The notes beneath the pieces were generated by a model. That model worked only from the letters and a program-made list of their open reading frames with translations. It was not told where the DNA came from and searched no databases. This document shows positions 39,190 through 60,947 of a stretch of DNA of 64,000 nucleotides, in pieces. Origin of the DNA: a virus; IMG/VR virus record IMGVR_UViG_3300017605_000342, positions 64,001-128,000 of that record. One strand, given 5' to 3'. Numbering within the stretch: the first letter of the stretch is position 1; each line of letters opens with the position of its first letter. The position numbers and the translations under genes were made by a program.

Positions 39190-39207
39190 TAGGCTCCTTT
39201 CGGGTTA

Positions 39208-39232
39208 GCTGGGGTGTTGTACCCACCCCAGC
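39208..39232 (-). terminator. GC-rich stem-loop after tail tube gene (terminator or mRNA stabiliser)
   Basis: GCTGGGGTG/CACCCCAGC 9-bp stem; no U-tract. Confidence 0.5.
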
Positions 39233-39244
39233 CCTTTAAACAAA

Positions 39245-42895: not shown

Positions 42896-42970
42896 TGGTG
42901 GAGACGGTGAGAATCGAACTCACCCACGTGCATTGCAAGTGCGCATCGCCCCCTTGGTACATGCGCCCCC
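42896..42970 (-). tRNA. tRNA-Ala(TGC)
   Basis: GGGGGCG/CGTCTCC acceptor with G3:U70 and A73, loop CTTGCAA, TTCGATT T-loop, encoded CCA. Confidence 0.85.
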
Positions 42971-42981
42971 ACTGAAAAATT

Positions 42982-43033
42982 GGGTGAGGCTAACTGCTCA
43001 TCATTATAACGCGACTCGCTCGTTGCCCCACCC
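42982..43033 (-). terminator. Stem-loop after major capsid gene
   Basis: GGGTGGGGC/GCCTCACCC stem enclosing ~34 nt, followed by AATTTTT. Confidence 0.5.
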
Positions 43034-43039
43034 TCTTCC

Positions 43040-45102: not shown

Positions 45103-46695
45103 TTAATCACTCCGTAACTTATTATTAGGGCCTGTTTTCTGTTTCTCGGATTCCTTCTTTACTTCCGCCATCGTACCGGTTTGCTTCGGCTTCTGCTGAG
45201 CAGCGGGTGATTTTCCACCAGCCATAACTTCCTCGTGCCATTCTGCAAAATCAAGGCTGTCAATTTCTTTCATGACCTTGGCTAGGTCTTCCACAGAAAG
45301 CTTACCGTCATGTTCCTTGACTAAACGCTTAAGTTCGGCTTTAGCAAACGTCTCGGAGGGCAACGCCAAGTCCTTGAACAACATCAAGAGATTCGTCATG
45401 GAATCTACAAGGTTCGTTAGTTCGTAATGGTCCTTGTACTTGATCTTGCCTGACCACTTCTTTCCGTTAAATAGCCACGTTAAGCGGAACAGCTTGTTCT
45501 CGGCATCTTCTAACCGCTGTGCCCACGTTGCAATAAAAGGCACGGTGCGGGAAAATGACATCGACTGAGACATACCAGAAGATTTCGCTCCGTTAGCTAA
45601 ATCGCTACGTAAGTCTTGTACAGCCTGCCGAAAAATTTCGTTGATATTACTCTGACGTTCTTCCTGCAAGAACTTGGCGGGGTCTGCCGGCGGCGTAATG
45701 TATTGTGGCGGCTGCCCTCCCTTAGGGAAGTACACAACGTTAGACGTTGATACGTTACCCTGACTTGCATTCTGCATCGGGAACATCATGTCTTGTTCTT
45801 TGGCTAGAATATTAAAACACTGTCTATACAGAAACTCATCGATTAACGATGTAATATTCAAAATCGATCTGTTGGTGGCTCCAATATCTCGTAAAAAACT
45901 ATTGCCCATTCCTTTATACTTCTTGCTGTGTTTGTATGCGATGCATACAATCGGTAACTCTTTTATAGGTAGCGGGCGTTCCTCACGGGACACAATCTCT
46001 GGTCGCTTTTCATCAGTGACATCTACTATGGTTACTGTGACGCGATCCAAGAACCACTCACGGTAAACTTCATAGTACTTTTTACTACCCGATAACTGGT
46101 CGTGAGAGATTTCCATCTGAAGTCTCTTCACATAAACGAAGTTACCAAAGTCGTCAGTATCCCAATCAAGTATTTCGTCTGGAGGTACTATGCACCAATA
46201 GGGTCTGATGCCTAACTCTTGGGCACGATAAACAGTGAAGATATCTCCTTCTGCCAATTGAACCAACGGAGTATCTACAAAAACAAAAACATGTCCGTAA
46301 ATACGGCCTAAGTTGGAGACTTCGTGCATAAACCCATCGACCGACGACCCACGTTTATCCACGTCCTTAATGAACTCTGAAAACGCCAAGTTGTCTGCTC
46401 CACCGTCTCTATCGATAACATCAGAGAAAATGAAGTTTGTGTAAAAGTCAATAGTTAACGCACAGTAATTAAGATAATGGGCGCGTTTAATACGGTCGTA
46501 ATAATCTTCTTCGTTCTCACGCATATGCTTGAAGATGTTGTTTGCAATTGCATCCGCCCCACCTTCATAGCTATTAACAAAAAATTCCCACTGAGGTTTA
46601 TAGATGTCGTAGTACTCGTGAGTACTCCGTAAACGCTCTAGTTCATCCCTCTCAGACTGATTAGGAATATCGACGTATGTTACAATGTCTGCCAT
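45103..46695 (-). CDS. Portal protein
   Basis: SYEGG, RE..EDY.DR..RA.YLNY, YGHVFVFVD, KSSG motifs; 530 aa. Confidence 0.9.
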   Translation of the reverse strand: MADIVTYVDIPNQSERDELERLRSTHEYYDIYKPQWEFFVNSYEGGADAIANNIFKHMRENEEDYYDRIKRAHYLNYCALTIDFYTNFIFSDVIDRDGGADNLAFSEFIKDVDKRGSSVDGFMHEVSNLGRIYGHVFVFVDTPLVQLAEGDIFTVYRAQELGIRPYWCIVPPDEILDWDTDDFGNFVYVKRLQMEISHDQLSGSKKYYEVYREWFLDRVTVTIVDVTDEKRPEIVSREERPLPIKELPIVCIAYKHSKKYKGMGNSFLRDIGATNRSILNITSLIDEFLYRQCFNILAKEQDMMFPMQNASQGNVSTSNVVYFPKGGQPPQYITPPADPAKFLQEERQSNINEIFRQAVQDLRSDLANGAKSSGMSQSMSFSRTVPFIATWAQRLEDAENKLFRLTWLFNGKKWSGKIKYKDHYELTNLVDSMTNLLMLFKDLALPSETFAKAELKRLVKEHDGKLSVEDLAKVMKEIDSLDFAEWHEEVMAGGKSPAAQQKPKQTGTMAEVKKESEKQKTGPNNKLRSD

Positions 46696-47651
46696 TATCT
46701 ATAACTGACCTCGTTCGTTAAGAACCAGTGCAGTTGTTCCTCCAGCGTCTTTAAGCGCCGTAACCGCAGCCACTCTGTGTAAGGTTTGCTGCGTTCTTTT
46801 GCTTCCATCATCAAATCAAACATTGACTTACTTTGTAATGGCTTTGCTTGTTTCTTAAAATGCTCAGCCATGTCGTACACATATTGATCGGCGGTTTTAT
46901 CTGCCAAAATGTACGCACAAGAAAATAAGTTCTTGTAAAAGTTCGATGAATGGTGTCTTGCATACCCTCTGCTTGCTGCTGCCCAGTGGCGGTGTATTGA
47001 CAGAGGTGACATATACACCTTACCGCCTTGCATCCAAATCGATAAGTCCGTGGATAACTCTTCACCCGCGTAGCCTTCGAACGCGCTGCATAGATGATAC
47101 CCACCATACTTTACAAACGACTCTCGCTTAACACTGACTCCACCATGACCCCCAGCGGCGATTGGAAATGGCTTATATGGATAATAAGGAACAGCTTCTG
47201 CCGAACCCCAAAAATCTCTTTTGAGTTGCAGCTTGTATCCATACAGCACCAAGTCTTTAGGATAGTACTGAGTAGCTGAATGCAGCATATCTGCGTCTGG
47301 CACTCGTTCCCAATCGTGCATCAGTTGCTTAAAGAACCCAGGACAAACCACGATATGGTTGTCAGCGAAAAACACGTACTTTCCAGTAGAGTTCTCAAAA
47401 GCCCTTGCACGAGCAGCTTGGGGAGTAAGCGGGTTATCTGTATGGTCGTAATACGTTAAAAAATCTGTTGTGCGCTTCAGTTCACCTATTGTTTGTTTGA
47501 GATCAGCGTCGGGCTTTTCACCGTTTGAAACGATGCTAAACTCAAAGTCTAGCTTTGCTTCCTGTAGCTCAAACTCGAGAGAATTGATTGTGGCCCACAA
47601 CAAACCTGCCGGGCCTCTATGTGCTATACATATTGAAATGTCTTTCGTCAC
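46695..47651 (-). CDS. GT2-family glycosyltransferase
   Basis: ISICIAHRG, ARARAFENSTGKYVFFADNH, GGY, GYAGEE. Confidence 0.75.
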   Translation of the reverse strand: MTKDISICIAHRGPAGLLWATINSLEFELQEAKLDFEFSIVSNGEKPDADLKQTIGELKRTTDFLTYYDHTDNPLTPQAARARAFENSTGKYVFFADNHIVVCPGFFKQLMHDWERVPDADMLHSATQYYPKDLVLYGYKLQLKRDFWGSAEAVPYYPYKPFPIAAGGHGGVSVKRESFVKYGGYHLCSAFEGYAGEELSTDLSIWMQGGKVYMSPLSIHRHWAAASRGYARHHSSNFYKNLFSCAYILADKTADQYVYDMAEHFKKQAKPLQSKSMFDLMMEAKERSKPYTEWLRLRRLKTLEEQLHWFLTNEVSYR

Positions 47652-47735: not shown

Positions 47736-48074
47736 TTACTCGTTATTCCCAGTACGTACTTTAACTTCTGCCGGAATTACCCATTTACCTTGAATACCAG
47801 ATTGTACAGCTACAATCTCTAGTTTATAACCACCACCTAGTGTTGGATTAAAAGTTTCTTGGATAGGTCCTCGATACATACCATTACTTGCTACCACGTA
47901 AGACAGCGTAATTGCATTGACTTCAGGTACTATGTCTCCGTCTCTGTCTTTAAGGGTAGCAGTCACAGTTGCGGCGTTGAAATACGACGCGTCATCCAAC
48001 CCGTCATGGAGTTCGTCGATTTCCACATACATATCATTTTCAATAAATAGTGTTACTTTGGTTGGTATTGCCAT
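47736..48074 (-). CDS. Small Ig-like structural protein (BppU N-terminal-like)
   Basis: ATVTATLKD.DG, NGMYRG, GYKLEI strands; start MAIPTK. Confidence 0.55.
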   Translation of the reverse strand: MAIPTKVTLFIENDMYVEIDELHDGLDDASYFNAATVTATLKDRDGDIVPEVNAITLSYVVASNGMYRGPIQETFNPTLGGGYKLEIVAVQSGIQGKWVIPAEVKVRTGNNE

Positions 48075-48085
48075 TAAATGTCCCC

Positions 48086-48901
48086 TTAGATGCCTACTAC
48101 TCTGAACCAATCAGATAGCATATGAGCGCCTGAACTAGATGTTTGCAGGCAGTAGCCTACCTGATCAAAGCTAGTAATGTACGTCGCAATGGTTTCAGAG
48201 TATACCGTTCTCCAGTCCGTCTCCGCACTATCTCCAGACGCTACTCTAAAAACAATGTTTGTACCATCATTCTCAATAGCTAGCATTGTTCTAGCCGATC
48301 TAGTCAGTTCAATGTCGGCAGTCAGTGCGTTCGCGTTGAACGTTGACGAGTCAGTATTTTTCTGAATAAGCACCTCACCAATATGAGAGGATAGTAGGCA
48401 TATCAACCTACCATTGCTGTTATTACGCACGAACAACCCACCGTATGTAGCAGACGATCCTACTGGTAGAACAGTGATTGGTGCGTAATACCTTTTGTTA
48501 GTTGGTGACGAAGCTGTTTTGTAAAGATATGCACCACGACCAGAAGTACCGGAAGTAGCAGACATACGTAACAGGCTGGGTGTCAAATTGTTCACGTCTG
48601 CAACTACTACTGAATGGTTATCATAGGTCCACCCAGATGGCGGATCGGCATTGGCACCTTCCCACTCTTCGTCTTCAGAAGCGTCTCGTCTCGGCCAACC
48701 TGGTTGATCTACTGGCCTCCACAACGCCCCAGAAGAATCCTTAAAGTACAGCTTATTGTCCTTACTTAATTTATATAGCTGAGTCGCGCTAGCACCACCC
48801 ACACTTGGCAAACTTGTCACTTCAATCATGTCATCCTCTTCTGATCTAACTGCATTTGTATAAATAAATGTGTCGGTGAAATCTATTATAGCTCTAGGCA
48901 T
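48086..48901 (-). CDS. Putative virion beta-sandwich/lectin protein
   Basis: LYFKDSSG fibre-like segment; DGTNIVFR, SDWFRV. Confidence 0.55.
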   Translation of the reverse strand: MPRAIIDFTDTFIYTNAVRSEEDDMIEVTSLPSVGGASATQLYKLSKDNKLYFKDSSGALWRPVDQPGWPRRDASEDEEWEGANADPPSGWTYDNHSVVVADVNNLTPSLLRMSATSGTSGRGAYLYKTASSPTNKRYYAPITVLPVGSSATYGGLFVRNNSNGRLICLLSSHIGEVLIQKNTDSSTFNANALTADIELTRSARTMLAIENDGTNIVFRVASGDSAETDWRTVYSETIATYITSFDQVGYCLQTSSSGAHMLSDWFRVVGI

Positions 48902-49735
48902 TTAGTACTCTATAATTTCAAATCTTTTTGAATATGAATAATTGCTAGTATTGATACACTTCGGACTGGCAGTTACACCACCCGACAACCACTTGTTTGT
49001 GAAATAACTGGTTGCTATGGCTAAGTCCGACCCTTGTCCGTTAAGGTCAACGTTGTACATGGCAACTTCGCCAACACGGCCATTGAAGTAAGCACTTCCT
49101 GCCGTACCATTCCTACCAAGCATAATGTTTCCGGTAGTTGTGGAAGTTGCTCCACTAGCAACACTAGACTCTGCCCCGCCATTAATAGCCATGTACAGGT
49201 TTGTTCCATTATGTCTAAGCATGACAACATAAGATGTAGCCAAACTGATTGTAGCTTCAACTTTGTCTTCATTCCCATCCCAGTTATACCCTTGTAAAGT
49301 ATGAACTCCAGCAACACTCTTAACATGCAAACCAAAAAACTGCCCAGAATCTACAAAAATTCCATCGTTGTTAAATGCACTTGCATCCGAACCAACTATT
49401 GCCTCAACATAAATAGACAACAAAACTGTTTTGGCACTTGCACTCAAAACATTGGCCAAACTTTTTGGAGTAACCCCGGCACTATCGTACAAACCCATTC
49501 GGTCATTTGTACCATCAAAATCTAAACATGCCAAAGCCATCAACGGAACAGAAGTTCGGTAAGTCGGTTCGGCAGACGGGTCTGACAAATACCAAAAAGA
49601 CAAATCTTTACCGTCATCGTCTTCCCATTCTTCTACAGTTTCCCCATCCACAGCAGAAGTTGAACCTGTCTTGATAACGTCGTCATTATTAGATGCATCA
49701 AAATGTGCCGTTAAGTTCGTTGTTGGTAAAGGCAT
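48902..49735 (-). CDS. LamG/concanavalin A-like domain protein
   Basis: AHFDAS, FDGTND, FNGRVGEVAMYN, YFTNKW. Confidence 0.8.
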   Translation of the reverse strand: MPLPTTNLTAHFDASNNDDVIKTGSTSAVDGETVEEWEDDDGKDLSFWYLSDPSAEPTYRTSVPLMALACLDFDGTNDRMGLYDSAGVTPKSLANVLSASAKTVLLSIYVEAIVGSDASAFNNDGIFVDSGQFFGLHVKSVAGVHTLQGYNWDGNEDKVEATISLATSYVVMLRHNGTNLYMAINGGAESSVASGATSTTTGNIMLGRNGTAGSAYFNGRVGEVAMYNVDLNGQGSDLAIATSYFTNKWLSGGVTASPKCINTSNYSYSKRFEIIEY

Positions 49736-49737
49736 AA

Positions 49738-51273
49738 TTAAACTGGAGTTGGCATGTTTGCCCCAATATCACCACCATCTGTCGCAGCATTGTGATATGG
49801 GCTAATATTAGTTAAACGTAGGTCAGCATATCCAGATAATGTTACAAACCCGACCTCAGCCAAAGTATCAGGAAAGTAATTACCAGCGGGATAAAATGGT
49901 CCCCACCCTTGATCTACGGGAGTTGCAAATACATTCTTAGAAATCACAGAATTTGGAAGATATGTATTGATTGACGGAGTACCAGAATTCTGTCCATCGC
50001 CTTTAATTCCATATTGATTGTGCTGAACGATGTTATTGGTAAAACGCATTCGCGGACAAGGAGCTGCGCTAAGAATCATCGTATCTCCACTATTCAAAAT
50101 AGTATTGTGGTCGATGTTAATATCTTGATAACCATTAATTAATAGGAATGGATTTACATCAATGTCATAAATCAAATTTCTTTGAATACATAGTCTTTGA
50201 GCGAAATCACTTGGAACGCCACTTTCTGTGTCCTGCCCGAGCATATTAATACCGTTGTACGAATTACGGATCGTGTTACGTAAAAACGAAACATCACTAA
50301 CAGTAGCCCAAGGATTTGTACCACTTTGGTTACGTACAGTAAATAGAACCGCGTAGCCAGTCTGAGCATCCGCCCAACAGTTTTCAACAATATTGTCAGA
50401 AACTAGAACTCTCTTGGCGTGTTTAAGTTCCAAGCTATTCTTCACTGTCCAGTGAGTTCCCAAATAACTAGGATCGTCTATCTTCCAAGTTAGTGGCTTA
50501 AACAATAAATTATTGCGAATCTCAATGTCTGACGGAGTAAGGTTGTGAATAGCTGCATCTGCCCCTCCAAACAAAACATTCTCACCAGCACCCTCTAGGT
50601 AATTGTTAACAATCTTATAGGGGCCTAAACCTGTCCACCCAGCAATAGCTTGAGTATCTGCTCCGACCTCTTTCCAGTCGGAAACATAAGAGTCAATAAC
50701 TGCCTGGTGACTTCCTGCAAACATAACCCCGCGTCTCCCGCCATTTACCGAACTACCACGCACGCCACAACGATCTAAAATGATGTGGTGCGGAAAATTG
50801 TTTGCGTTTGTTTCAGAGCCTGTACCAAGACACACTAATCCACCGTTTGTTGCCGTTGCGCCGGATTTAATGTCACAGTTAATAAAACGGTAATGATGTG
50901 CTCCTGCTTCTGCTTGGATAGTTGCGGCAGTATTGGCAGTAGCGATCTTAGGAAATCCGGTCAAGTCCCCGGTAGTAACTCGCGTACCCTCCGTAGTTAA
51001 CGAAGCAGAACTACGAATATAAATGTAACTACTACCACTCTTAACTGGTAGACTGAAATTTCCAGTATAAACAGATCCAGCATTAAGCGTAATTATATCT
51101 CCAGGATTTGCAGAGTTTAACGCGGCTTGAAAATCTCCACCATCTCCTACTACAATGGTTGACCCAGAAGGAGTAACGTACGTTGTATCTATATACACGC
51201 GTGGTAATTCTGGATCTGCAAATGGAACTGGCTTAAAATGTTTATGTGTGAATGGAAAATTATAACCAATCAT
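49738..51273 (-). CDS. Right-handed beta-helix (polysaccharide lyase-like) protein
   Basis: GDFQAALNSANPGDII, NNYLEGAGEN, KNSLELK, C-terminal SPY...TDGGDIGAN; start MIGYNF. Confidence 0.85.
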   Translation of the reverse strand: MIGYNFPFTHKHFKPVPFADPELPRVYIDTTYVTPSGSTIVVGDGGDFQAALNSANPGDIITLNAGSVYTGNFSLPVKSGSSYIYIRSSASLTTEGTRVTTGDLTGFPKIATANTAATIQAEAGAHHYRFINCDIKSGATATNGGLVCLGTGSETNANNFPHHIILDRCGVRGSSVNGGRRGVMFAGSHQAVIDSYVSDWKEVGADTQAIAGWTGLGPYKIVNNYLEGAGENVLFGGADAAIHNLTPSDIEIRNNLLFKPLTWKIDDPSYLGTHWTVKNSLELKHAKRVLVSDNIVENCWADAQTGYAVLFTVRNQSGTNPWATVSDVSFLRNTIRNSYNGINMLGQDTESGVPSDFAQRLCIQRNLIYDIDVNPFLLINGYQDINIDHNTILNSGDTMILSAAPCPRMRFTNNIVQHNQYGIKGDGQNSGTPSINTYLPNSVISKNVFATPVDQGWGPFYPAGNYFPDTLAEVGFVTLSGYADLRLTNISPYHNAATDGGDIGANMPTPV

Positions 51274-51274
51274 T

Positions 51275-54200
51275 TTATTCATCATCCTTACATGCTGCAA
51301 GATCAACATCGGCTTGCACTGCCTTGACTATATCAGCCGACCCAACAACAGCCGCAGGGATAACTTCGGCAGTATTGGTTACTGCTGCTGGTATAACATC
51401 AGCCGCCAGCACAACAGCCGCAGGGATAACATCAGCAGTGTTTGTGACACTAGCTGGAGTAACTTCAGCAGTGTTGGTTACCATAGCCAAAATAACGGCG
51501 ATGGTAGTTAGACACATTGTTCTTAAAATAAACAACGACTGATCTGGTGTCAGATGTATTTGCTGAATTAACCATGATTTTACAAAATGTGTAAAAATCG
51601 GTTCGTTGGTTTGTAACAACCAATCCAAGTCAATCAGAGGAGTATTGAACTCCATTCCACTAATTAGTGAAAGCAACTCGGCACGGAACTTTGCTGATCG
51701 AGTGATTTCGGTAAACGCCGGCAACCACGTAGAAAGATCAAAGATTTCTTCACGTTTTACAAAAGATAACCGTGATAGTTCAACAGAGTTCTTTCTCCCT
51801 AACAGCGTTGGAACAAAGTTCTCTTTGAACCACTTGTCCAAAGTAACCACTTCACTAGGAGTAAACTGGAATGTGCCGTTTCTGTCTATAAGTGCGAATC
51901 TCTTCTGGGGACGCTCTAGTTCTCTAGCCCATTTATCCAGAGTTACTTGCTCTCCGCTAGGAGTAAACTGGAATGCACTACCCTTATCTAGTAGTGTTAA
52001 CTTCTTAGCTGGGCGTTCTAATTCTTTAAACCACTTATCGACAGTAACACCACCATCTTGGCGTGGAACCACTACTCCCAGAACATCACGGAAAAATTTC
52101 TTAGAGAAGATCGGGTTGTGATCTTTGTACCACTTATCAACCGTAGTTCTCTCGGCTTGTGTTAGCTGTCTTGGATCAATTGCGTAATACCCCGTACGAA
52201 TAAGAGGAATGCGGGTTGTGGGTGGTATACCAGTTTCTCTGAACCAACGATCCACGGGAACTCTAAACTCGCGTGTATCCATAACAGACACACCCTCTCT
52301 TACCAAGCGAAGCTTATCTCTCTGTGGTACAGACAACTGCTGCCAATACTTATCCAAGTCAATTCTGAACTGCTTGGCATCAAACACACTAGCCCCTTCA
52401 CGCACCAACTGTGGTGGAAATCTTCTAGGTTCTGCTAGTTGTCGCCAGTACTTATCCAGTGTAATTCTTTCTGCTTGTGTCAATTGTCGCGGGTCAATAG
52501 TGAACCACCCAGGCAATCTTGGGGCAGCTTTCTTTGGCGGTGTTTCTGTTTCTTTAAACCACCGATCTGAAAACGCAGACGTGTCCTCGTATCTAAACGG
52601 AGAAACTGAATGATCATACTGGGGCAATTCACGAATAGGCAAATACAAACTAGTCTTAGTACCAACCACAAAGCTAACTATAAACCGTGGTAAAACCTGA
52701 GATTGGCTTTCACGAACTAGCGGTAACACGCTGCGTCTTGGTTCTGAAAGTGGTCCCCACCACTTATCTACAGTTACTATTTCTTGTTGCTGTTGGTACG
52801 GAGGATATACCGAAGTATCGCGCAAACTTGGTCTAGCTTTGTTGAAGTCTAGATAAAAAGTACCATCCTGTCCCACAACAAATGAGATATCTTTTGCATC
52901 TATAAACTCATTAACATAAGGTGTTAATTGCTTTTGTATGCGCTTATACTCTTGTTGATAAACAAACTTATCCACATCAATTCTAAACTGCTTAGGATCA
53001 AAACCAGACACGCCCTCTTTCACTAGCTCAGACTTAGAACGACGTGGCTCTGACAACTGCTGCCAGTACTTATCGATGGTACTGCGTTCAGCCTGAATCA
53101 ATTGATATGGATCTATTGTGTACCCCTCTTTCACCAACGGCTTAGCAGTCTTTGGAGGTGTCTGAGTTTCACGATACCATCTATCCAGATCTACCCTGAA
53201 TTCTTTTAGATCAAACGCAGAAATGCCTTGCTTCAACAGTTGGGCCGAAGTTCTTACTGGTGTTTCAGTATTACGATACCAACCGTCCAGTCTCGCAACA
53301 AACTGTCTTACATCGAAAATACTAAGACCTTCTCTGACAAGTGCTGGTTTGGAACGCACTGGTTCTGTTAGTTGTTGCCAATACTTATCAACTGTAGAAC
53401 GCTCAGCCTGTGTTAACTGACGTGGATCAATAGTGAACGCACCTTCACGAACTAGTGGCATACGTTGCCAAATAGTCTTTTCAGTTTCCTTGAACCATTT
53501 ATCTACAGTTATTGTTTCACCACGAGAAACTAAGTCCTTCGCAAAAAATCCTTCTGGTACTAATGGTTTCTTTGTCCAAAGTGTTCTTGCAGTTTCTCTG
53601 TACCACTTATCCAACGTACTATTCTCAGCCTGTGTTAGCTGTCTAGGATCTATGACAAATAAACCCTCACGCACAAGCGGTCGAACCCTATCCGGTGGCG
53701 TCCCAGTCAGTCTAAACCATCTATCTAATGGTACCAGAAGCTCGTGTGGGTCTGTAACAGATATACCAGATCTAGGTAGTATCTTAGCTAACGGCATCGG
53801 CTCAAAAATATTTCTAAACCACTTATCTACTGTAGATGTTTCTCCAGTAAAGAACGGGGCGGCTTTACCTTGGTACTGAAACTTGGTTAGATATCTTAAA
53901 TGCAAGTCATTGGTTACAACTGCAATTACGTCAGGCTGTGAAAACGGATACGTAGGAAACGTACTTTGTTGCCCTGTGATAAGTGGATCACGTAATGGCA
54001 AGTAAATACTTGTCTTTGTACCTACTGCGTATCTCACAGTAAATTCAGTGAACGCCTGCGTATGACCTTCTCTAACCAACTGGCGCGGCACCATTCTTGG
54101 CTGATTAGGTAATTGGTAATGCTTGTCTATCGTCACTATCTCTTGCTGCTGTTGGTATGCGGGTGCTGCCAACATATCCAACGTCGCTAATCTAGCCTTA

Positions 54201-54730
54201 CCAAAAGGACGGTACGACACTTGATAGTACTTGTCGATAGAACTACGTTCAGCCTGTGTTAATTGTACAGGGTCGATTATTGAAATACCTGTCTTAACTA
54301 GTGGCTTGTAAACATTGGGCGATCTCTCAGTTTCCTTAAACCACTTATCCAAGTTAATCGGAAATTCAGCTTGAGCATCTTTCGAGAAATGGCCTTCAGC
54401 GACCAGCTCTCTGCGAACCATCTTCGGTTGATTTGGCTGCTGCCAGTATTTGTCAACCGTGCTGCGTTCAACCTGTGTTAGCTGTCGCGGATCTACAGAA
54501 AAATGCCCTTCTGGTACAAGGTACTTCGGAAATTGTTTTGGCTGATTTGGTACTTGGTAATACTTATCTAAAAAAACAACTACCGGAAAAGAGGCAACAA
54601 ACGGTGGTTCAGCCTTAATCTGATACTGGAACCGCTCGTCAACCCCAATAGCTGTACTATCAAGTTCGACTTGAAGAGTGGGTGATGCCCCTCCAACATC
54701 TGTTCCACCAAATAGCAATAGCAAAGACAT
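51275..54730 (-). CDS. 1151-aa tandem repeat protein (D[KR][WY] repeats), function unknown
   Basis: About 23 clear 33-38 aa units; MSLLLLFGG N-terminus; 11-aa repeats at C-terminus. Confidence 0.9.
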   Translation of the reverse strand: MSLLLLFGGTDVGGASPTLQVELDSTAIGVDERFQYQIKAEPPFVASFPVVVFLDKYYQVPNQPKQFPKYLVPEGHFSVDPRQLTQVERSTVDKYWQQPNQPKMVRRELVAEGHFSKDAQAEFPINLDKWFKETERSPNVYKPLVKTGISIIDPVQLTQAERSSIDKYYQVSYRPFGKARLATLDMLAAPAYQQQQEIVTIDKHYQLPNQPRMVPRQLVREGHTQAFTEFTVRYAVGTKTSIYLPLRDPLITGQQSTFPTYPFSQPDVIAVVTNDLHLRYLTKFQYQGKAAPFFTGETSTVDKWFRNIFEPMPLAKILPRSGISVTDPHELLVPLDRWFRLTGTPPDRVRPLVREGLFVIDPRQLTQAENSTLDKWYRETARTLWTKKPLVPEGFFAKDLVSRGETITVDKWFKETEKTIWQRMPLVREGAFTIDPRQLTQAERSTVDKYWQQLTEPVRSKPALVREGLSIFDVRQFVARLDGWYRNTETPVRTSAQLLKQGISAFDLKEFRVDLDRWYRETQTPPKTAKPLVKEGYTIDPYQLIQAERSTIDKYWQQLSEPRRSKSELVKEGVSGFDPKQFRIDVDKFVYQQEYKRIQKQLTPYVNEFIDAKDISFVVGQDGTFYLDFNKARPSLRDTSVYPPYQQQQEIVTVDKWWGPLSEPRRSVLPLVRESQSQVLPRFIVSFVVGTKTSLYLPIRELPQYDHSVSPFRYEDTSAFSDRWFKETETPPKKAAPRLPGWFTIDPRQLTQAERITLDKYWRQLAEPRRFPPQLVREGASVFDAKQFRIDLDKYWQQLSVPQRDKLRLVREGVSVMDTREFRVPVDRWFRETGIPPTTRIPLIRTGYYAIDPRQLTQAERTTVDKWYKDHNPIFSKKFFRDVLGVVVPRQDGGVTVDKWFKELERPAKKLTLLDKGSAFQFTPSGEQVTLDKWARELERPQKRFALIDRNGTFQFTPSEVVTLDKWFKENFVPTLLGRKNSVELSRLSFVKREEIFDLSTWLPAFTEITRSAKFRAELLSLISGMEFNTPLIDLDWLLQTNEPIFTHFVKSWLIQQIHLTPDQSLFILRTMCLTTIAVILAMVTNTAEVTPASVTNTADVIPAAVVLAADVIPAAVTNTAEVIPAAVVGSADIVKAVQADVDLAACKDDE
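51317..51481 (-). repeat. Five degenerate 33-bp (11-aa) tandem repeats
   Basis: VTNTAEVTPAS/VTNTADVIPAA/VVLAADVIPAA/VTNTAEVIPAA/VVGSADIVKAV. Confidence 0.85.
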
Positions 54731-54733
54731 AGG

Positions 54734-55429
54734 TTATATACCAAACATACCGGCTGACCCAACTGGGTCCACCATGCTGATTCCAGTGCCAGAAACGTAG
54801 AACTCCATCACAATAATTCCCCACGCAGTTGTGTTTGCGTTAGTCCAAGTAATCGTCGATCCAGTCTCACCACTTGCACGAGACGCAGTTTCCTGACTAT
54901 GTGCTGGATTGGTAAAAGATACCTCTGAGCTTGCGATTTCTCCCCATGATCCTGGGGCAGTCCACTGAGCTGCTGAGTTGGTTGTATTCGTCGCAAACCC
55001 CAAACAGCCGTTACCTGTAAGAATAGCAGCATCCATAGTAACTGCGGGATTTGCAGAAGAGCCTGTAGCCGTCTTGAATTGACGCAGTAAAGGATTAGTC
55101 GTTGAATCACCACCAGTCACACGAACCACATGCATCGCACTACCGGTGGAATTTCCTGAAATTGTATAGACAGGAGTCGTTGAAGTGGCGGCTGTAGCAG
55201 CAGCATAAAATATGAAGATTGTATCTGCGCCAGCATTTTTTGTAAAGCTTGTTAAGAAGTACCACGTCCAAGCACCAGACATGGAACCGACAGCGGTATT
55301 ACCGGTCACGCTTACACAAGCAATTAACAGGTCACCAGCCGCTGGCGTTCCAGCAGTACCAGTGTGATTAGCTGCGTTGTTAGATGTGTTCGCTGAAGCT
55401 GCCGCCAAAGCTGTAAAGGCTAGTGCCAT
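54734..55429 (-). CDS. Ser/Thr/Ala-rich virion beta-sandwich protein
   Basis: AGDLLIACV motif, WTAPGSW. Confidence 0.6.
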   Translation of the reverse strand: MALAFTALAAASANTSNNAANHTGTAGTPAAGDLLIACVSVTGNTAVGSMSGAWTWYFLTSFTKNAGADTIFIFYAAATAATSTTPVYTISGNSTGSAMHVVRVTGGDSTTNPLLRQFKTATGSSANPAVTMDAAILTGNGCLGFATNTTNSAAQWTAPGSWGEIASSEVSFTNPAHSQETASRASGETGSTITWTNANTTAWGIIVMEFYVSGTGISMVDPVGSAGMFGI

Positions 55430-55605
55430 TATTCCTCTTTAACACACTGAACTCTGTTGTTGTGGGTGTGGTTATTACCTTTTCGTTCCTCTTTAGTTTC
55501 AGGTTGCCCACATTTGCAGCAATGATACCATCCACGTCCGTTGTAGAATTCTCCGAAAGTGTCGTCGTTTACTTCTTTGTAATCGCAAAAACAATGTTTA
55601 TTCAT
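55429..55605 (-). CDS. Cys-rich microprotein
   Basis: HCFCDY, HCCKCG; AAGGA RBS; TAATG coupling. Confidence 0.45.
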   Translation of the reverse strand: MNKHCFCDYKEVNDDTFGEFYNGRGWYHCCKCGQPETKEERKGNNHTHNNRVQCVKEE

Positions 55606-55610
55606 AGTCC

Positions 55611-56429
55611 TTACCATTCATACCCAGCTACACAGACATCGATTGAAATACCAGCATCCGTAGTAATGTGTAATTCTCGGTCTGCTGTTGTACAAAAGAT
55701 CGGTGAGGCTGGCGTAAAAACTAAACCAGGTTTAGATGTAGTACTTGGAGCCGATGAAAATGCAAGCACGGCTTGGTCAGTACCCGCTGAGTAGGTGGTA
55801 TCCGCATTATCACCGAACCACAAAATAATACGGGCGGCAGTCGTCGCGTAAGTACCGACCACAATCGACGTAATGGCAATTTTCTTACCAGAGGTTGGGG
55901 ACCATACGTCAGTACCAGTCTGAGTAGAAGTGGCGTTAAATGTCTTATGGATAAATAGCGCGGGATCAATATGCGCAGTAAGTTGTCTTCCCCAAAGGTC
56001 GCTCACACCATTTGCACGATCTGAGTTTGCAACAGCAGTTGGTAAAGCGTTGATCGCCTTGAAACCAACCTTGACTGGGTTACCAGAATCGGCAGAATCA
56101 TGCGGCGTGCCTCCACCAACTGCCAATGCATCCACAGCAGAAGAACCCGTCTCATCAACCACGGAAGTTTGTAGAGTACCATCACCGATTCTTACAGCAA
56201 CTGGAGTCCCTGATGGGGCATCGACTGTGATCGAGTTACCACCGTCGTTCATACGAGTTACATCAACGTCTAAACCGTTGGTCGCATCTCCACCTATTTT
56301 TCCGGTTGCATCTGCCGTTCCATCTACCAACTTTACATATTGATAATGAACACCGGAAACGTCGTCAGTTGCAACTACTGGGGTTGCTGTGCCTGTACCA
56401 GATGCTGGAATTGTTACGTTATCTGCCAT
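55611..56429 (-). CDS. Putative virion structural/fibre protein
   Basis: MADN...ATDDVSGVHYQYVKL N-terminus; C-terminal PTSGKKIAITS beta domain. Confidence 0.65.
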   Translation of the reverse strand: MADNVTIPASGTGTATPVVATDDVSGVHYQYVKLVDGTADATGKIGGDATNGLDVDVTRMNDGGNSITVDAPSGTPVAVRIGDGTLQTSVVDETGSSAVDALAVGGGTPHDSADSGNPVKVGFKAINALPTAVANSDRANGVSDLWGRQLTAHIDPALFIHKTFNATSTQTGTDVWSPTSGKKIAITSIVVGTYATTAARIILWFGDNADTTYSAGTDQAVLAFSSAPSTTSKPGLVFTPASPIFCTTADRELHITTDAGISIDVCVAGYEW

Positions 56430-57716
56430 TTAGTAACCTACCTGTTTTCTACTTTTGTAAAAGTTTATGTTTGATGCAGAAACAAACGGAGACAAACTAG
56501 CCGCTGTTACACGTATGTCATCAAACCACATGGTGTGTGCGTTAGTTGCCGAACTATCCAAGTCTATAGTAGTGATTGAAGCATAGCTGCCGGTATTAAC
56601 AGTATTCCAAGGGGTCCATGATCCACCGTCGATTCGCGCCCTATACTGATTCGGCTGGTTAGTGTTATCAAACTGCATCTCGCATTGATACCACGTATCA
56701 GCCGAATAAGCTTGAATCGTTTCGTACACCCCACCGCTATCGTCATACGTTTCTATGTTACCTGTTGGGCCGAATCTAATATACATCCGACCACCAGTAT
56801 TACCAATCGATGACCTTAACGTCACACCTATATTGTCATTAGGATTGGTGATACTGATACGCATTCTCCAAGAAACGCTTCCCGCAGAAAGCGGGGCAAT
56901 TTCTCGGTAGTAATGAGTTTCAGTAGTTGTATTGGCCCGTACCGCTTTGCCGCCTTGACCACCGGATGGAGCAACTTCAACACTCTTATGACCAGTCGTT
57001 GGAGTAGACCAGCCCGTTAAAAACGCAGCCCAAGGACTCACCCAATTCGCACCGTCAGACAAACCAACCAATTCGGCACCAGTCGCGTAACTATCAAAAG
57101 AATCTGCCGCCACCCACGAAGTTCCTAATGCTACTGATCGGATGTCATCAACATAGGCAACTGCATTAAATCCAGTCTCAGCATCAATGTGAAACCGTGA
57201 AATGCTGGCGTAAGATCCACCGTCTACAGACTTAAAAGCACTCCAGTAAGAATCATTGATTCGAACTCGATACAAACCAGGATGGTCAGTATTATCAAAG
57301 TGAACCACAATGGTATACCAAGTATTGGCGGCGTATGTTTGTAAAGTATCGTAGACGACGGTATTCCCATTCCATATCTTGATGGTTCCGTCAGACGCAA
57401 AGTTCACAAACATCTTACCGTTTGTACTGTCATCCAATACGATCTTAAAATCACCGCTTGGGGACGCGGAATCCAGCCGTACTCTGTAAGAAACAAACCC
57501 TTGCGTAATAGCAGTCATACTACGATGGTACTCTGAAAGTGGGTCGGCATTACAACGCACTGCGTTGCCACCCTGTCCGCCACTGGGAGCCGTTTCGATG
57601 GTCAACACACCAGCCACTTGCGTCCATGCGGAAGTCCAGTTGCTACCACCATTCTTGCCGTTTAGGTCATTTGTTAGTGTGTAGCTATCAAAGTCATCTG
57701 TTGCAATCCAAGCCAT
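56430..57716 (-). CDS. Tandem two-domain lectin-like (concanavalin-type) protein
   Basis: Internal ~200-aa duplication: D.FDSY, APSGGQGG, TWY, DDIR each occur twice. Confidence 0.75.
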   Translation of the reverse strand: MAWIATDDFDSYTLTNDLNGKNGGSNWTSAWTQVAGVLTIETAPSGGQGGNAVRCNADPLSEYHRSMTAITQGFVSYRVRLDSASPSGDFKIVLDDSTNGKMFVNFASDGTIKIWNGNTVVYDTLQTYAANTWYTIVVHFDNTDHPGLYRVRINDSYWSAFKSVDGGSYASISRFHIDAETGFNAVAYVDDIRSVALGTSWVAADSFDSYATGAELVGLSDGANWVSPWAAFLTGWSTPTTGHKSVEVAPSGGQGGKAVRANTTTETHYYREIAPLSAGSVSWRMRISITNPNDNIGVTLRSSIGNTGGRMYIRFGPTGNIETYDDSGGVYETIQAYSADTWYQCEMQFDNTNQPNQYRARIDGGSWTPWNTVNTGSYASITTIDLDSSATNAHTMWFDDIRVTAASLSPFVSASNINFYKSRKQVGY

Positions 57717-57997
57717 TATCTAAGTACCGATATCTTACCGTTCTCAAAATCTTCCATACGTTTCTCAAATGGGTAACATTTTGCAATACATGCGGGCGCA
57801 CCACAAAGCCAAGAATCGCACTTAGTGCAATAACCGCGTAATACACCACTACCTTTCACAGAAATACAGTGTTTATGGCAATGACCACATTGAAGTGTCT
57901 GCGCGATTTCCTCGCCATCTGCGAGGATATATCCTGACGGTTTTCTGCTTGTTGTGGCAGATTCACCGGGTTCGAGGATTAGTTTGCCTTCCGCCAT
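57716..57997 (-). CDS. Cys-rich zinc-binding protein
   Basis: TLQCGHC, KGSG..RGYCTKC, LCG..C...C.PFEK. Confidence 0.7.
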   Translation of the reverse strand: MAEGKLILEPGESATTSRKPSGYILADGEEIAQTLQCGHCHKHCISVKGSGVLRGYCTKCDSWLCGAPACIAKCYPFEKRMEDFENGKISVLR

Positions 57998-58140
57998 TAC
58001 CCAATTCTCCAATTAGTTCCCCAACTGTGGGATATGGACTTTTTCTTACCACTAGCCAACATAGCTTCCTGAGTTCTGCGATAAGCTTTTTCTTCTTCTG
58101 TAAGGGGAAATAATGCGGCTGTAAAAACACATACTATCAT
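57997..58140 (-). CDS. Small hypothetical protein
   Basis: Fills the gap; TAATG coupling. Confidence 0.4.
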   Translation of the reverse strand: MIVCVFTAALFPLTEEEKAYRRTQEAMLASGKKKSISHSWGTNWRIG

Positions 58141-58141
58141 G

Positions 58142-58351
58142 TTAACCTGCCTTTTGTTTTTGAAGCATGTAGTTGTTAAATGCGCGGTTTTTCTCGGCAC
58201 ATAAAACACAATGCATATCTTGGTTTATCTTGGTGTCTAGGCCACAAGACATACATTTGTGGGGTTGTGGGGTTGGTTCAACTAGTATGATGTTTTGAAA
58301 CTTTTCGTCATCTATCTGATTGTTCTGTTTAAGGTAGATCGGTTGTGACAT
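58142..58351 (-). CDS. Small zinc-finger protein
   Basis: CMSCG...CVLC. Confidence 0.5.
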   Translation of the reverse strand: MSQPIYLKQNNQIDDEKFQNIILVEPTPQPHKCMSCGLDTKINQDMHCVLCAEKNRAFNNYMLQKQKAG

Positions 58352-58676
58352 CACGTTCTTCTTTCTTATGCTTTTTACTATAAACAGCCACCGAATCTGG
58401 AAGTGGGGCCTTAGGGTACTTCTCTTTGAAAGCATCCAAATAACAGTCAACACAATACTCTGCGAAAATTGATTCTCTACCATTTACACCCAAAACAGGT
58501 CTTAAATGGAAGTGGTGTGGGACTGGAGATTGAAACCCATTTCCCTGCATATTTAGGTACTGTTCTAGAGTATCTCCACACGCATTACATGAACGTCCTG
58601 CTGTCGTGTTTTCGCGCCATCCTGCACAGATCTCACAAGCACCATCCTGCTCGTCGATCAAAACTGGTCTTACCAT
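58329..58676 (-). CDS. Cys-rich zinc-binding protein
   Basis: CEIC, CNAC, CVDC; AAGGA RBS. Confidence 0.6.
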   Translation of the reverse strand: MVRPVLIDEQDGACEICAGWRENTTAGRSCNACGDTLEQYLNMQGNGFQSPVPHHFHLRPVLGVNGRESIFAEYCVDCYLDAFKEKYPKAPLPDSVAVYSKKHKKEERDVTTDLP

Positions 58677-58694
58677 TTGATATCCTTTGAAATA

Positions 58695-58767
58695 AATTGA
58701 GGTGTCATTGCTTACGATTGCCAGCCATTGTAGGCGTATGATCTTACTCGCTGGCGCAACCCCAATT
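58695..58767 (-). ncRNA. Candidate structured RNA element
   Basis: Nested stems AATTGGGGT/ACCTCAATT, TGC/GCA, GCCAGC/GCTGGC fill the intergenic gap. Confidence 0.45.
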
Positions 58768-58770
58768 CAA

Positions 58771-59220
58771 TTACTCTTCGAACAAAATTGTGTAGGTCAT
58801 TGCAACAGCAGACCCACCGATAGCGTTCTGTAATAGCCCGATACCGTTAGATGCTGTAGACGGTGCTTTCAACTCACTTCCCGGTGCAGCGACCCAACGG
58901 AATGTCGCACGTTGGTTTGTTGCAAAACGAAGTAAGATTGTGTTTGCGGTGTAGGTAGGTTCTACAGAGTGGTTAACCTTCACCACAGATGTACCTGCCG
59001 GATCACCAGAATCTAGCGCTGCGTAGGTAAAGGTTGTACCAGTACCGTCAGCAGTGTAACGCTGTAGGATGTACTCACCAGCGTTGTCGGCGGGTGTTGC
59101 TACCGAACCCACCAACACGTCATAAATTAACGGACGAACTGCTGCTGTCGCTGTGATAGAAATCGCAGACGTGCTAGCAGTGTTTGTATCCGTAGTTGCT
59201 ACTGAATATTTTCTTGCCAT
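58771..59220 (-). CDS. 149-aa Thr/Ala-rich structural protein, candidate high-copy subunit
   Basis: ATPADNA, NQRATFRWVAAPGSEL; strong AGGAG RBS; 3' stem-loop. Confidence 0.7.
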   Translation of the reverse strand: MARKYSVATTDTNTASTSAISITATAAVRPLIYDVLVGSVATPADNAGEYILQRYTADGTGTTFTYAALDSGDPAGTSVVKVNHSVEPTYTANTILLRFATNQRATFRWVAAPGSELKAPSTASNGIGLLQNAIGGSAVAMTYTILFEE

Positions 59221-59243: not shown

Positions 59244-59423
59244 TTAACATTCAAAAAATTCTACACGGTCATCTTGTAGAAAATTATCAAACCCATCTGT
59301 TATGCGGGCTATTTCATTCTGATAGCAAAACTCTATCAATTCTAATGCTTCAGCCATTGACACGACCGGACTGACAATTCTAACCACAACTTTGGTTGAT
59401 TTCGAATCGGTAATCTTTTCCAA
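59244..59423 (-). CDS. Small hypothetical protein
   Basis: TTG start after GAGG RBS; start uncertain. Confidence 0.35.
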   Translation of the reverse strand: MEKITDSKSTKVVVRIVSPVVSMAEALELIEFCYQNEIARITDGFDNFLQDDRVEFFEC

Positions 59424-59676
59424 TGAATTCCTCACCAAGGTACTCGTACAATGCTTTGAAGTTCTTGGAAAATGCATCGCGCATTCTCTCAGCGACTAAC
59501 GTAGATGCACTCTGTGTATCAACGTGACAGTCTAAACAGTAAAACTGTGTGCAATACTTACAGTACTCTAGGTGCGGGTGCAGACACGGTGCGTACTGTT
59601 CCGGGTGTTTGTGCTTCTCACTCTGACTAATTGGGGTATAGTTGGCTCCCCACGCGCCATAAAACATATTAAACAT
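59380..59676 (-). CDS. Cys-rich hypothetical protein
   Basis: CLH...CKYC..FYCLDC. Confidence 0.55.
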   Translation of the reverse strand: MFNMFYGAWGANYTPISQSEKHKHPEQYAPCLHPHLEYCKYCTQFYCLDCHVDTQSASTLVAERMRDAFSKNFKALYEYLGEEFIGKDYRFEINQSCG

Positions 59677-59899
59677 TGTAATTCTCTACTTCCTTTCGCA
59701 AGATTTCCTTGAGTTCGATTTCAGAAGTAACCCCGGCTGTAAACTCTGCAATTTGATGGTCGATTGTTTCGGATAACTCACTAACAGCCTTAGGTGGCGA
59801 CCACGTAAATGGTACAAACCAGTCTTGAAATTCATTAAGGGAAGTCTCTCCAAAGATATACTTTTGTAGTTCAAACACTAACAAGTCGGCTTGTTTCAT
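59669..59899 (-). CDS. Small acidic helical protein
   Basis: GETSLNEFQDWF...SEIELKEILR. Confidence 0.55.
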   Translation of the reverse strand: MKQADLLVFELQKYIFGETSLNEFQDWFVPFTWSPPKAVSELSETIDHQIAEFTAGVTSEIELKEILRKEVENYNV

Positions 59900-59904
59900 T
59901 TTGT

Positions 59905-59978
59905 TGGTCTGGGTAGCTGGAATCGAACCAGCTCTTCATGATCCCAAGTCACGGGTGCAACCATTACACCATACCCAG
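59905..59978 (-). tRNA. tRNA-Pro(TGG)
   Basis: CTGGGTA/TACCCAG acceptor, C1-G72, A73, loop CTTGGGA, TTCGATT, CCA. Confidence 0.92.
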
Positions 59979-60124
59979 ATATGTCGGGTATGGGTTGGGG
60001 TTCTCAGGATTTGTCATTGTGATATTCCTTCCACTTTTTCATAGTATCTGGTCTTGAGAGATACATGAACTTCCAATATGCTTTAAAACAAAACTTACAG
60101 CGTGGGCCTTCTTTGCAAGGCACG

Positions 60125-60259
60125 TTATGAACGACTGCCACTTTTCTTTTTGTCCTTAGCTTTGACGACTTTGATGCCGCCGTCTTTCTTGAACTGCTCG
60201 TAAATTTCTGGCTTATGTTCTTTAAGCCAAGTACGCTGTTTACGTGAATAAAATGTCAT
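60125..60259 (-). CDS. 44-aa basic microprotein (paralog of the adjacent 37-aa gene; not in ORF track)
   Basis: MTFYSRKQRTWLKEHKPEIYEQFKKDGG...; ATGA overlap. Confidence 0.65.
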   Translation of the reverse strand: MTFYSRKQRTWLKEHKPEIYEQFKKDGGIKVVKAKDKKKSGSRS

Positions 60260-60369
60260 TTGCGTTTACCACGGCGAACCTTGGTGCCGTACTTCTTTGC
60301 CCAACGTTTCGCAATTTTCGGAAGCTTTGCAAACATGTAACGACGTTGTTTAGCAGACTTAAATGGCAT
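60256..60369 (-). CDS. 37-aa basic microprotein, MPFKSxKQRR type (not in ORF track)
   Basis: MPFKSAKQRRYMFAKLPKIAKRWAKKYGTKVRRGKRK. Confidence 0.75.
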   Translation of the reverse strand: MPFKSAKQRRYMFAKLPKIAKRWAKKYGTKVRRGKRK

Positions 60370-60370
60370 C

Positions 60371-60511
60371 CTAGACCTTCTTTACAGTCAAAAGTTTTAG
60401 AAAATTACTATCTATTATTTCTTCTAAGATATATTCAAGTTCTTTATACGTTGCCACTAACTTTGTACATTCGCGTGAAGTTTGCAGCTCCATATAAATG
60501 ATTTCATACAT
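60371..60511 (-). CDS. 46-aa hypothetical protein (not in ORF track)
   Basis: GAGG RBS; MYEIIYMELQ...TVKKV fills the gap. Confidence 0.45.
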   Translation of the reverse strand: MYEIIYMELQTSRECTKLVATYKELEYILEEIIDSNFLKLLTVKKV

Positions 60512-60521
60512 CTTAGTAACC

Positions 60522-60947
60522 TCATGATTTTTTACTCGGTTTGATGTACTGCACGGATGCTGGCAATGGTGAATCTTTTTCCCAAAATGCTAGTCTAGTT
60601 TGATTTTTGTTTACGCTGAGTATTCCTGTTACGCAGTGGTTATGGCGTCTATGGTCTTGAAAGTCGCAGTGTGACATCACAGTGTCATCGTCTGGATGAC
60701 TATGAATATCGCCGATTACTACCATGCCCCATTCTCTTGCGCGGGCATGCACTGTCTCAACAGCACCACGAACTGTTTCGATATTACCCGGAGTCTTTGT
60801 CGCTAGCTCCGGGTAAATCCATCTATGTACCTCAACTAATGAGGGTGATATCCGATATCCAAGCAACATTGCATACTCTTCATCCAGCGACCGAATACAC
60901 TTGCGGCGAAAGTAGTCAAGATGATGCCGTTTTAACCGGACTATCAT
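60522..60947 (-). CDS. JAB/MPN+ (JAMM) metallo-isopeptidase
   Basis: E..AMLLG and GDIHSHPDDDTVMSHCD = HxH-x7-S-x2-D. Confidence 0.85.
   Translation of the reverse strand: MIVRLKRHHLDYFRRKCIRSLDEEYAMLLGYRISPSLVEVHRWIYPELATKTPGNIETVRGAVETVHARAREWGMVVIGDIHSHPDDDTVMSHCDFQDHRRHNHCVTGILSVNKNQTRLAFWEKDSPLPASVQYIKPSKKS

Follow-up and report, generated by a model that had tools for sequence, protein, structure and literature searches.

A conserved mobile gene cassette, fixed in its frame and variable in its glycan-related cargo, among the morphogenesis genes of an uncultured soil phage

The stretch of viral DNA analysed here, called the window throughout, is 64,000 nucleotides long (positions 64,001 to 128,000 of IMG/VR record IMGVR_UViG_3300017605_000342) and is part of a record of 160,874 bp with an estimated completeness of ~77%. 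Between its genes for the large terminase subunit (terL) and the portal lies an island of 11.5 kb at 47736–59220, which comparison with other phages shows to be a conserved mobile cassette: a fixed frame of genes carries exchangeable, glycan-related cargo, and the whole is embedded in, and co-oriented with, genes of virion morphogenesis. As to its function, we favour the view that the products are borne on the virion as an accessory adhesion structure, with the repeat protein REP as backbone and the small protein P149 as an abundant subunit or anchor; we put the probability of this at roughly 0.4. The component families are undescribed; accessory receptor-binding cassettes are already known as a kind.

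The frame consists of P149, one to three small Zn-ribbon proteins of which CYS is the constant one, REP, and a closing protein, p124. All lie on the minus strand, as does every gene from ~13.6 kb to the end of the window, and the open reading frames (ORFs) of the island are closely packed, often with overlapping stop and start codons. P149 (149 amino acids (aa); 58771–59220) is the first gene and belongs to a conserved family with a predicted jelly-roll fold. Two small ORFs separate it from CYS. The first, p115zn (58329–58676), is Cys-rich with CxxC pairs and has homologues between P149 and CYS in 16 loci; the second, p113 (58142–58483), has a CxxC...CxxC arrangement, is conserved at residues 62–103 alone (in the loci L080–L082), and probably has its true start at an internal position. 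CYS itself (57716–58012; 93 aa from the ATG at 57997) is Zn-ribbon-like, with 7 Cys and 1 His conserved across 58 homologues. REP (51275–54730) is a protein of 1151 aa with 22 D[KRG][WYF] motifs at a spacing of 33–38 aa, and p124 (47736–48074; 112 aa from its ATG) is 75% identical in the loci L123 and L128. The cargo that lies between these genes in the window comprises lec428, p272, p231, bh523, lamG277 and p271. The limits of the block given in a preliminary description of the window, 47736 and 59220, coincide with its conserved ends, p124 and P149.

The frame genes occur together in many phages. A first set of 78 IMG/VR loci was fetched with P149 alone and its ORFs were clustered; a survey with hidden Markov models (HMMs) covered 85 distinct P149 loci. 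The order, fixed and on one strand, is P149, sometimes p115zn, CYS, zero to several variable genes, and REP. CYS is found downstream of P149, on the same strand and within 4.5 kb, in 55 of the 66 loci with at least 1.5 kb of downstream DNA, and an ORF with REP units follows P149 in 15 of the 40 with at least 8 kb, while about 60% of the loci with enough downstream DNA have P149 and CYS without REP. Matches to the REP-unit HMM are confined to ORFs downstream of P149 on the same strand, and a single CYS or REP match was out of place (upstream or on the opposite strand). The reverse search gave 24 new loci with an alignment of REP repeats (A3) and one locus with a direct REP query and too-specific patterns; among the ~18 REP-fetched loci with usable upstream DNA, CYS lies upstream on the same strand in 15 and P149 in 13. 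In L003, L110 and L120 REP is immediately followed by a homologue of p124, and in L107 such a homologue stands within 1 kb of REP; a p231 homologue directly follows CYS in L031. The co-occurrence of the 149-aa, Cys-rich and repeat families is thus borne out from both search directions, in fixed order and on one strand, on many unrelated phage contigs.

The block is also conserved at greater length. On L128, an 86.6-kb ENA contig, the genes run terL, a Prok-JAB gene (JAB), P149, a Zn protein, CYS, a 159-aa protein, a lec428-like protein, p272, p231, REP (1192 aa), a beta-helix protein, a 101-aa protein, a LamG protein, and p271-like and p124-like proteins. Identity to the window is 87% for P149, 75% for p124, 71% for CYS, 70% for p231, 65% for bh523, 53% for both lec428 and p272, and 46% for REP, against 44% for terL and 36% for JAB. 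With P149 at 87% and terL at 44%, the cassette must either be far more constrained than the terminase or have been transferred as a block between these lineages. In L123 the distal half adjoins a glycosyltransferase gene and the portal (bh523 63%, p124 75%, portal 47% and capsid 52% identical). L080 shows the converse: terL is 80% and P149 79% identical, yet the genes after CYS are wholly different, among them those for two signal-peptide proteins and two LamG proteins, with no REP in the 14 kb available. This is a pattern in which the frame is kept and the cargo exchanged. A chance pile-up of unrelated accessory genes is ruled out by the co-occurrence together with the conservation of the block.

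The island lies within a cluster of head genes. It is flanked on the left, outside the cassette, by terL (62326–63651; PHROG 2, 4e-43; Pfam Terminase_6N, 2.4e-13, and Terminase_6C, 7e-9), and on the right by the portal gene (45103–46695; phrog_145, 6e-51), which is followed by genes for the scaffold (44043–44843), the major capsid protein (43040–43963), the head-tail adaptor (41207–41839) and the tail tube (p205, 39245–39862; phrog_117). The gap between terL and portal, previously put at ~15.6 kb, measures 15,631 bases. The nearest cultured phage is Tunturi_4 of Tunturiibacter, whose portal is 47% identical; it is a siphovirus and its head is prolate (PMC11924767), and in its genome terL, a single glycosyltransferase gene and portal are contiguous. 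That gene, gp2, has an orthologue in the window, GTb318 (46695–47651; 34% identity, 7e-60), a GT2 glycosyltransferase (Glycos_transf_2, 28.2 bits, above the cut-off of 23.3) that overlaps the start of the portal gene and is also orthologous to the glycosyltransferase of L123. GTb318 is the ancestral neighbour of the portal gene and not a member of the cassette, and ~14.7 kb of the gap is extra relative to Tunturi_4. A separate tail set is encoded elsewhere in the window, as had been claimed: the adaptor, the tube, a 2467-aa protein in the tape-measure position, matching the Tunturi_4 locus, and tailspike-like and J-like proteins were all located.

In other phages the position of the cassette varies within the same kind of surroundings. 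It lies between the portal and a MuF-like gene on one side and the prohead protease on the other in L003; P149 comes directly after the capsid gene in L006 and directly after a portal-MuF fusion in L010; and in L022 the cassette is upstream of a gene with a tail-protein PHROG and of the tape measure gene. In podoviruses with a portal and adaptor of P22 or SU10 type, P149 and CYS follow the adaptor gene and precede fibre genes. Among 139 upstream neighbours, the 25 commonest PHROG families, where named, are all of head or packaging function. The suspected link to head genes fits these neighbourhoods, in particular the upstream PHROG families and the loci L006 and L010.

P149 represents a large family. 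Thirty homologues align over their full length; the motif NQRATFRW, the C-terminal Glu and several Asp and Arg residues are invariant. There are at least 739 clusters at 90% identity, all annotated as hypothetical and none with a Pfam domain, and P149 itself matched nothing in Pfam, PHROG or NCBIfam; the family is also present on 15 contigs of metagenome bins, which are spread over many phyla by assignment. No longer, fused forms were found, which is weak evidence. At L049:10001–11380 three tandem P149 paralogues (34–42% identical to the window protein) precede CYS. The AlphaFold2 model has 10 strands and no helix, and is of high confidence, with a predicted local distance difference test score (pLDDT) of 94 and a predicted template-modelling score (pTM) of 0.87. 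The closest structure is the pilus subunit Ena1B (Z 9.8, root-mean-square deviation (rmsd) 2.3 over 97 residues, 4% identity), with further matches to a nanovirus capsid protein (Z 8.9), the KHP40 cement protein (Z 8.6), the HFTV1 turret (Z 8.1), the KHP30 cement protein (Z 7.6), the spore anchors ExsF/BxpB (Z 7.5–7.8) and chains of the GP4 and Pam1 capsid entries (Z 6.8–6.9); in BFVD the matches were to uncharacterised phage proteins only. Since these Z values are within, or barely above, the generic jelly-roll range, they indicate a fold and not a function.

The signals for expression of P149 resemble those of the major virion genes. Its start has TAGGAG, a 15-nt spacer and ATGGC, and among 54 minus-strand genes the arrangement of TAGGAG, a spacer of 12–16 nt and ATGGC is found for P149, capsid and tube only. 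A strong Shine-Dalgarno site is present in 15 of 26 P149 homologues, against a noisy background of 22%. The shared signal at the ribosome-binding site and the frequency of the Shine-Dalgarno site suggest that P149 may be made in large amounts.

REP begins with a QYQ..AEP motif, continues with ~22 repeats of ~36 aa around [TV]xDK[WY], and ends in 11-aa repeats. Across the family the N-terminal motif, [RK][WF]QYQ..AEP, is common and is followed by E-T-I-T-L-D-K-W units; the length varies about five-fold between phages while the period of ~36 aa stays constant. At the C-terminus of the window protein (51275–51500, −) the short repeats are TNTAEVIPAAV-like, and relatives elsewhere end in similar short, strand-like repeats of different sequence. 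The more cargo DNA lies between CYS and REP, the longer REP tends to be (Spearman 0.52, p = 0.0015, n = 34, uncorrected for phylogeny). Two proteins of the REP cluster (L060 and L024) begin with sequence that, as judged by eye, resembles the N-terminus of p231. REP had no match among the INPHARED phage records.

Most cargo proteins lack an assigned family. Scans of the island proteins against Pfam, PHROG and NCBIfam profiles left the majority without any match; those above the Pfam threshold were Laminin_G_3 in the 277-aa protein, Prok-JAB in a 141-aa protein and GT2 in the 318-aa protein GTb318, and those below it were Beta_helix and NosD in the 523-aa protein and a Sialidase-like CBM in the 428-aa protein. 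No meaningful match came from searches of PDB sequences with P149, a P149 profile, CYS, p231, p272 and bh523, and BLAST revealed no paralogy among the island proteins. lamG277 (48902–49735), with a ConA/LamG-like lectin or glucanase fold, reaches 31.4 bits for Laminin_G_3 (PF13385; cut-off 27.6), and LamG genes recur after P149-CYS in L080, L127, L128 and the neighbour survey. bh523 (49738–51309) is a probable right-handed beta-helix enzyme, with 19.9 bits for Beta_helix (PF13229; cut-off 25.9) and a weak NosD match. lec428 (56430–57716) is a tandem duplication of a beta-rich domain (halves 37% identical, 2e-46), for which the sole basis of the lectin label is the Sialidase-like CBM (PF22585), at 25.4 bits with a cut-off of 27; its L128 homologue has the same place. 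The glycan-related character claimed for the cargo thus holds for LamG, which passes its cut-off, and is weakly indicated for the beta-helix and CBM proteins. p231 (54734–55429) is beta-rich, has an N-terminal 'GDLLI' motif and is directly upstream of REP; p271 (48086–48901) has 30% identical homologues in the same place in L123 and L128; and p62 (55429–55617) is a small Cys-rich ORF for which no homologue was found. The ORFs listed in the preliminary description are present, and its labels 'fibre-like' and 'Ig-like' for p272, p231 and p124 could not be verified.

p272 (55611–56429) belongs to a large and widespread family (at least 894 clusters, no Pfam domain). Its C-terminal ~170 aa are 58–71% identical to two tandem paralogues in L129 (L129:8041–10660), a few kb downstream of a gene with a weak Baseplate_J_C match, and on another contig a copy stands beside a 523-aa gene with a weak Beta_helix match, near the end of the structural genes. 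These locations, which are independent of P149, are positions typical of tail-fibre genes. The C-terminal domain is very conserved and occurs in fibre-like loci.

Three observations point to cargo of a receptor-binding type: the LamG_3 protein above its Pfam cut-off, the LamG, beta-helix, GH16 and DUF2341 genes that recur downstream of P149, and the copies of p272 found elsewhere near a baseplate gene or beside beta-helix genes. From these features the following picture may be drawn. The cassette would have been inserted into the head-gene cluster as a portable accessory adhesin unit, and its products would assemble with the late virion proteins into an extra surface appendage, which would bind, and perhaps cut, glycans of the host or its surrounding matrix in addition to the normal tail tip. 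REP would form an extended multivalent backbone, P149 would be a high-copy subunit or anchor, and the Zn-ribbon proteins may serve as assembly helpers.

Several findings weigh against a virion-borne appendage. No protein of the block has a PHROG match, structural or other. P149 was found in one uncultured record only among 50,697 phage records (INPHARED), and in no cultured phage. The hairpin 3' of its stop codon is not significant (z −1.3). Its structural Z scores are within reach of unrelated jelly-rolls. It is far more conserved than the capsid, portal and terminase genes of its carriers, which is odd for a protein that docks on their lattices. The AlphaFold2 model of five REP repeats, built on a 46-row repeat alignment, has a pLDDT of 43.5 and a pTM of 0.14 with little helix; an extended array of short motifs and an obligate oligomer would suit it alike, and it decides nothing. 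A complex prediction for P149 and the REP N-terminus (alignments A1 and A5; score 0.00, no controls) is evidence for neither side. Finally, the gap has glycosyltransferase genes on both sides, an arrangement that an island for glycan remodelling would explain just as well, and classical signal peptides occur on cargo in L080, L014, L015 and L067, which would be exported from the cytoplasm instead of joining virions.

The last two points lead to an alternative that we consider unlikely, in which the island is auxiliary and its late proteins act off the virion, on the host envelope or surrounding polysaccharide, for example as agents of remodelling, superinfection exclusion or release, with P149, CYS and REP as a soluble or envelope-associated complex. 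Downstream neighbours of P149 belong mostly to unknown families, with LamG_3, DUF2341, GT2, Beta_helix, GH16 and GH130 recurrent; the glycosyltransferase, GH16, GH130 and methyltransferase genes among the neighbours would suit this alternative, as would the lack of structural PHROG matches and the high turnover of cargo, typical of accessory 'moron' regions. However, the cargo in the window has no signal peptides, and those found in 4 of 181 downstream neighbours do not exceed the upstream controls. The cassette is, moreover, always within head or tail morphogenesis genes and co-oriented with them, P149 has a ribosome-binding signal of capsid and tube type, and the p272 family and beta-helix genes appear in tail-fibre loci elsewhere. 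The large signal-peptide proteins after P149-CYS, at L080:5053–9229 and L015:14173–19386, are unexpected in a phage late operon, and those of L080 also have repeated Ser/Thr-rich segments.

It is likewise improbable, in our estimation, that the island combines two unrelated things: P149, perhaps with CYS, as a jelly-roll cement or decoration protein, and the remainder as ordinary tail side fibres or spikes, with no single appendage. The alignments of the P149 model with the KHP40 and KHP30 cement proteins, the HFTV1 turret and the GP4 and Pam1 chains agree with such a division, as do the position of P149 next to the capsid gene in L006, the ~60% of loci without REP, and the SU10-like podoviruses in which P149-CYS lies among adaptor and fibre genes with no REP. 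A cement protein bound to the lattice should co-vary with the capsid, however, and between phages whose head and neck genes match different families P149 is still 40–87% identical and retains its invariant polar motif. REP and p124 occur nowhere but downstream of P149-CYS, and the whole order of the block is kept in L128.

A bolder variant of the virion-borne appendage, which we regard as quite a long shot, is a self-contained, horizontally mobile organelle for 'adhesin display' of an undescribed kind. REP would be a backbone extended by its own nature, and each of its DK[WY] units of ~36 aa would recruit P149 and/or a lectin or enzyme from the cargo, in the manner of a cellulosome scaffoldin. 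The outcome would be a filament on the head or neck that binds glycans multivalently, its length and valency set by the number of repeats.

Very doubtful is the literal form of the model first proposed, with P149 as a tube or filament, the Zn proteins as chaperones, REP as a ruler and a tip of lectins and enzymes. Gene order and co-occurrence, the five-fold length range of REP at constant period, Ena1B as the top structural match and the high-expression signal on P149 speak for it. The analogy of P149 to a tube protein is nevertheless unsupported: its 10-strand jelly-roll is nearest to Ena/ExsF, cement or turret proteins and small viral capsids, it matches no tube profile, and the top 50 VIA matches, all jelly-rolls, include no tail-tube structure, although absence from this list does not exclude one. 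As P149 has no cysteine, and the alignment of 30 sequences no conserved Cys column, a disulfide-linked connector or pilus of Ena type is excluded. The analogy of REP to a ruler is unsupported as well, because it has no confident fold and a separate protein holds the tape-measure position; its low-confidence model does not predict the helical structure of tape-measure proteins, and REP is missing from most P149 loci.

Known phage structures offer partial parallels to the virion-borne appendage favoured here. Accessory structures of head and neck include the neck passage structure and carbohydrate-binding decorations of lactococcal siphophages, the whiskers of T4, and the head fibres and neck appendages of phi29; they bind glycans or aid adsorption, add to the receptor binders of the tail tip, and are present or absent among relatives. 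The cassette has no sequence or profile similarity to the neck passage, whisker or head-fibre systems, in which the frame of jelly-roll, Zn-ribbon and 36-aa repeat has no counterpart, and the attachment of its products to the virion is putative. In the branched multi-spike complexes of G7C, CBA120 and PhiK64-1, interchangeable glycan binders and cleavers are combined with a conserved docking protein, and the cargo is exchanged horizontally. Those complexes are encoded in the tail module and dock on the baseplate via T4 gp10-like domains, whereas the conserved genes of the cassette are new families and its locus is among head genes.

The individual proteins can be compared in the same way. The KHP30/KHP40 cement proteins (PDB 7dn2, 7dou) and the HFTV1 turret (8qpg) resemble P149 in size (~120–155 aa) and in being single jelly-rolls, with Z of 7.6–8.6, rmsd of 2.6–3.0 over 98–103 residues and identity of 5–13%, values generic for the fold. 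The P149 gene directly follows that of the capsid in some phages (L006); in the window the two are ~15 kb apart, and other loci vary. Unlike cement proteins, P149 is conserved across phages with different families of head genes. The Ena pilus subunits (PDB 7a02, 8pdz, 9i0y) are small jelly-rolls like P149 that build surface filaments, and the ExsF/BxpB anchor (PDB 9h3d, 8d02), of similar fold, holds the N-terminal peptide of a fibre protein; identity to P149 is only 4–12%, the hosts are unrelated, there is no evidence of common descent, and P149 lacks the connector cysteines of Ena. REP shares with tape-measure proteins its great length and the variation of that length between phages, but it is encoded outside the tail module, between terL and portal, with a DK[WY] period of ~36 aa and a low-confidence model that is mostly non-helical.

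The remainder of the gap contains genes that the preliminary description had passed over on the terL side (a GT2-like gene, a 105-aa ORF, a Prok-JAB gene, a tRNA and small ORFs) as well as GTb318 on the portal side; all those between terL and P149 are on the minus strand. GTa352 (61268–62326) is a weak GT2-like protein (Glycos_transf_2, 16.6 bits, under the cut-off of 23.3) that is unrelated to the Tunturi_4 glycosyltransferase and not present in the relatives L080 and L128; it is a lineage-specific extra gene. JAB141 (60522–60947) is a stand-alone Prok-JAB (JAMM) protein (32.6 bits, cut-off 25), also found between terL and P149 in L080, L082 and L128 (36–56% identical) and not in other P149 loci; no gene for a ubiquitin-like or E1/E2 partner was seen. 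The late operon includes a tRNA-Pro(tgg) gene (59905–59978; detected by ARAGORN, Rfam tRNA 58.5 bits), with the JAB gene on one side and the small ORFs on the other, and the ~540 bases preceding it (59979–60521) have no ORF on the gene strand. The small ORFs p76, p98zn (Cys-rich) and the doubtful, overlapping p77 (59244–59899) have 62–74% identical copies in L080–L082 only.

No long direct or inverted DNA repeats mark the ends of the cassette; those seen were the diverged internal repeats of REP (60–78% DNA identity) and short matches at chance level. Scans for promoters and terminators gave counts not above those of shuffled sequence. Strong hairpins are present 3' of the stop codons of the two major virion genes, capsid (42940–43045, z −4.0, then a U run) and tube (39190–39250, z −2.2), and have the look of terminators or attenuators. 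A 271-aa gene midway through the tail module (28860–29675, −) matches PHROG 298, 'exonuclease' (5e-31), an odd annotation for its position.

Annotation databases gain three new protein families from this analysis: P149, CYS and the DK[WY] repeat. For P149 alone there are at least 739 relatives, from uncultured phages and from metagenome bins of many bacterial phyla, and neither Pfam nor PHROG has a family for it. At least one pair of phages shows a cassette far better conserved than the terminase. Soil phages, represented here by relatives of an Acidobacteriota phage, are almost unstudied structurally. If the cassette does encode a second, glycan-binding appendage, this would bear on how such phages find their hosts inside polysaccharide-rich soil matrices, and on the evolution of host range through the swapping of cassettes.

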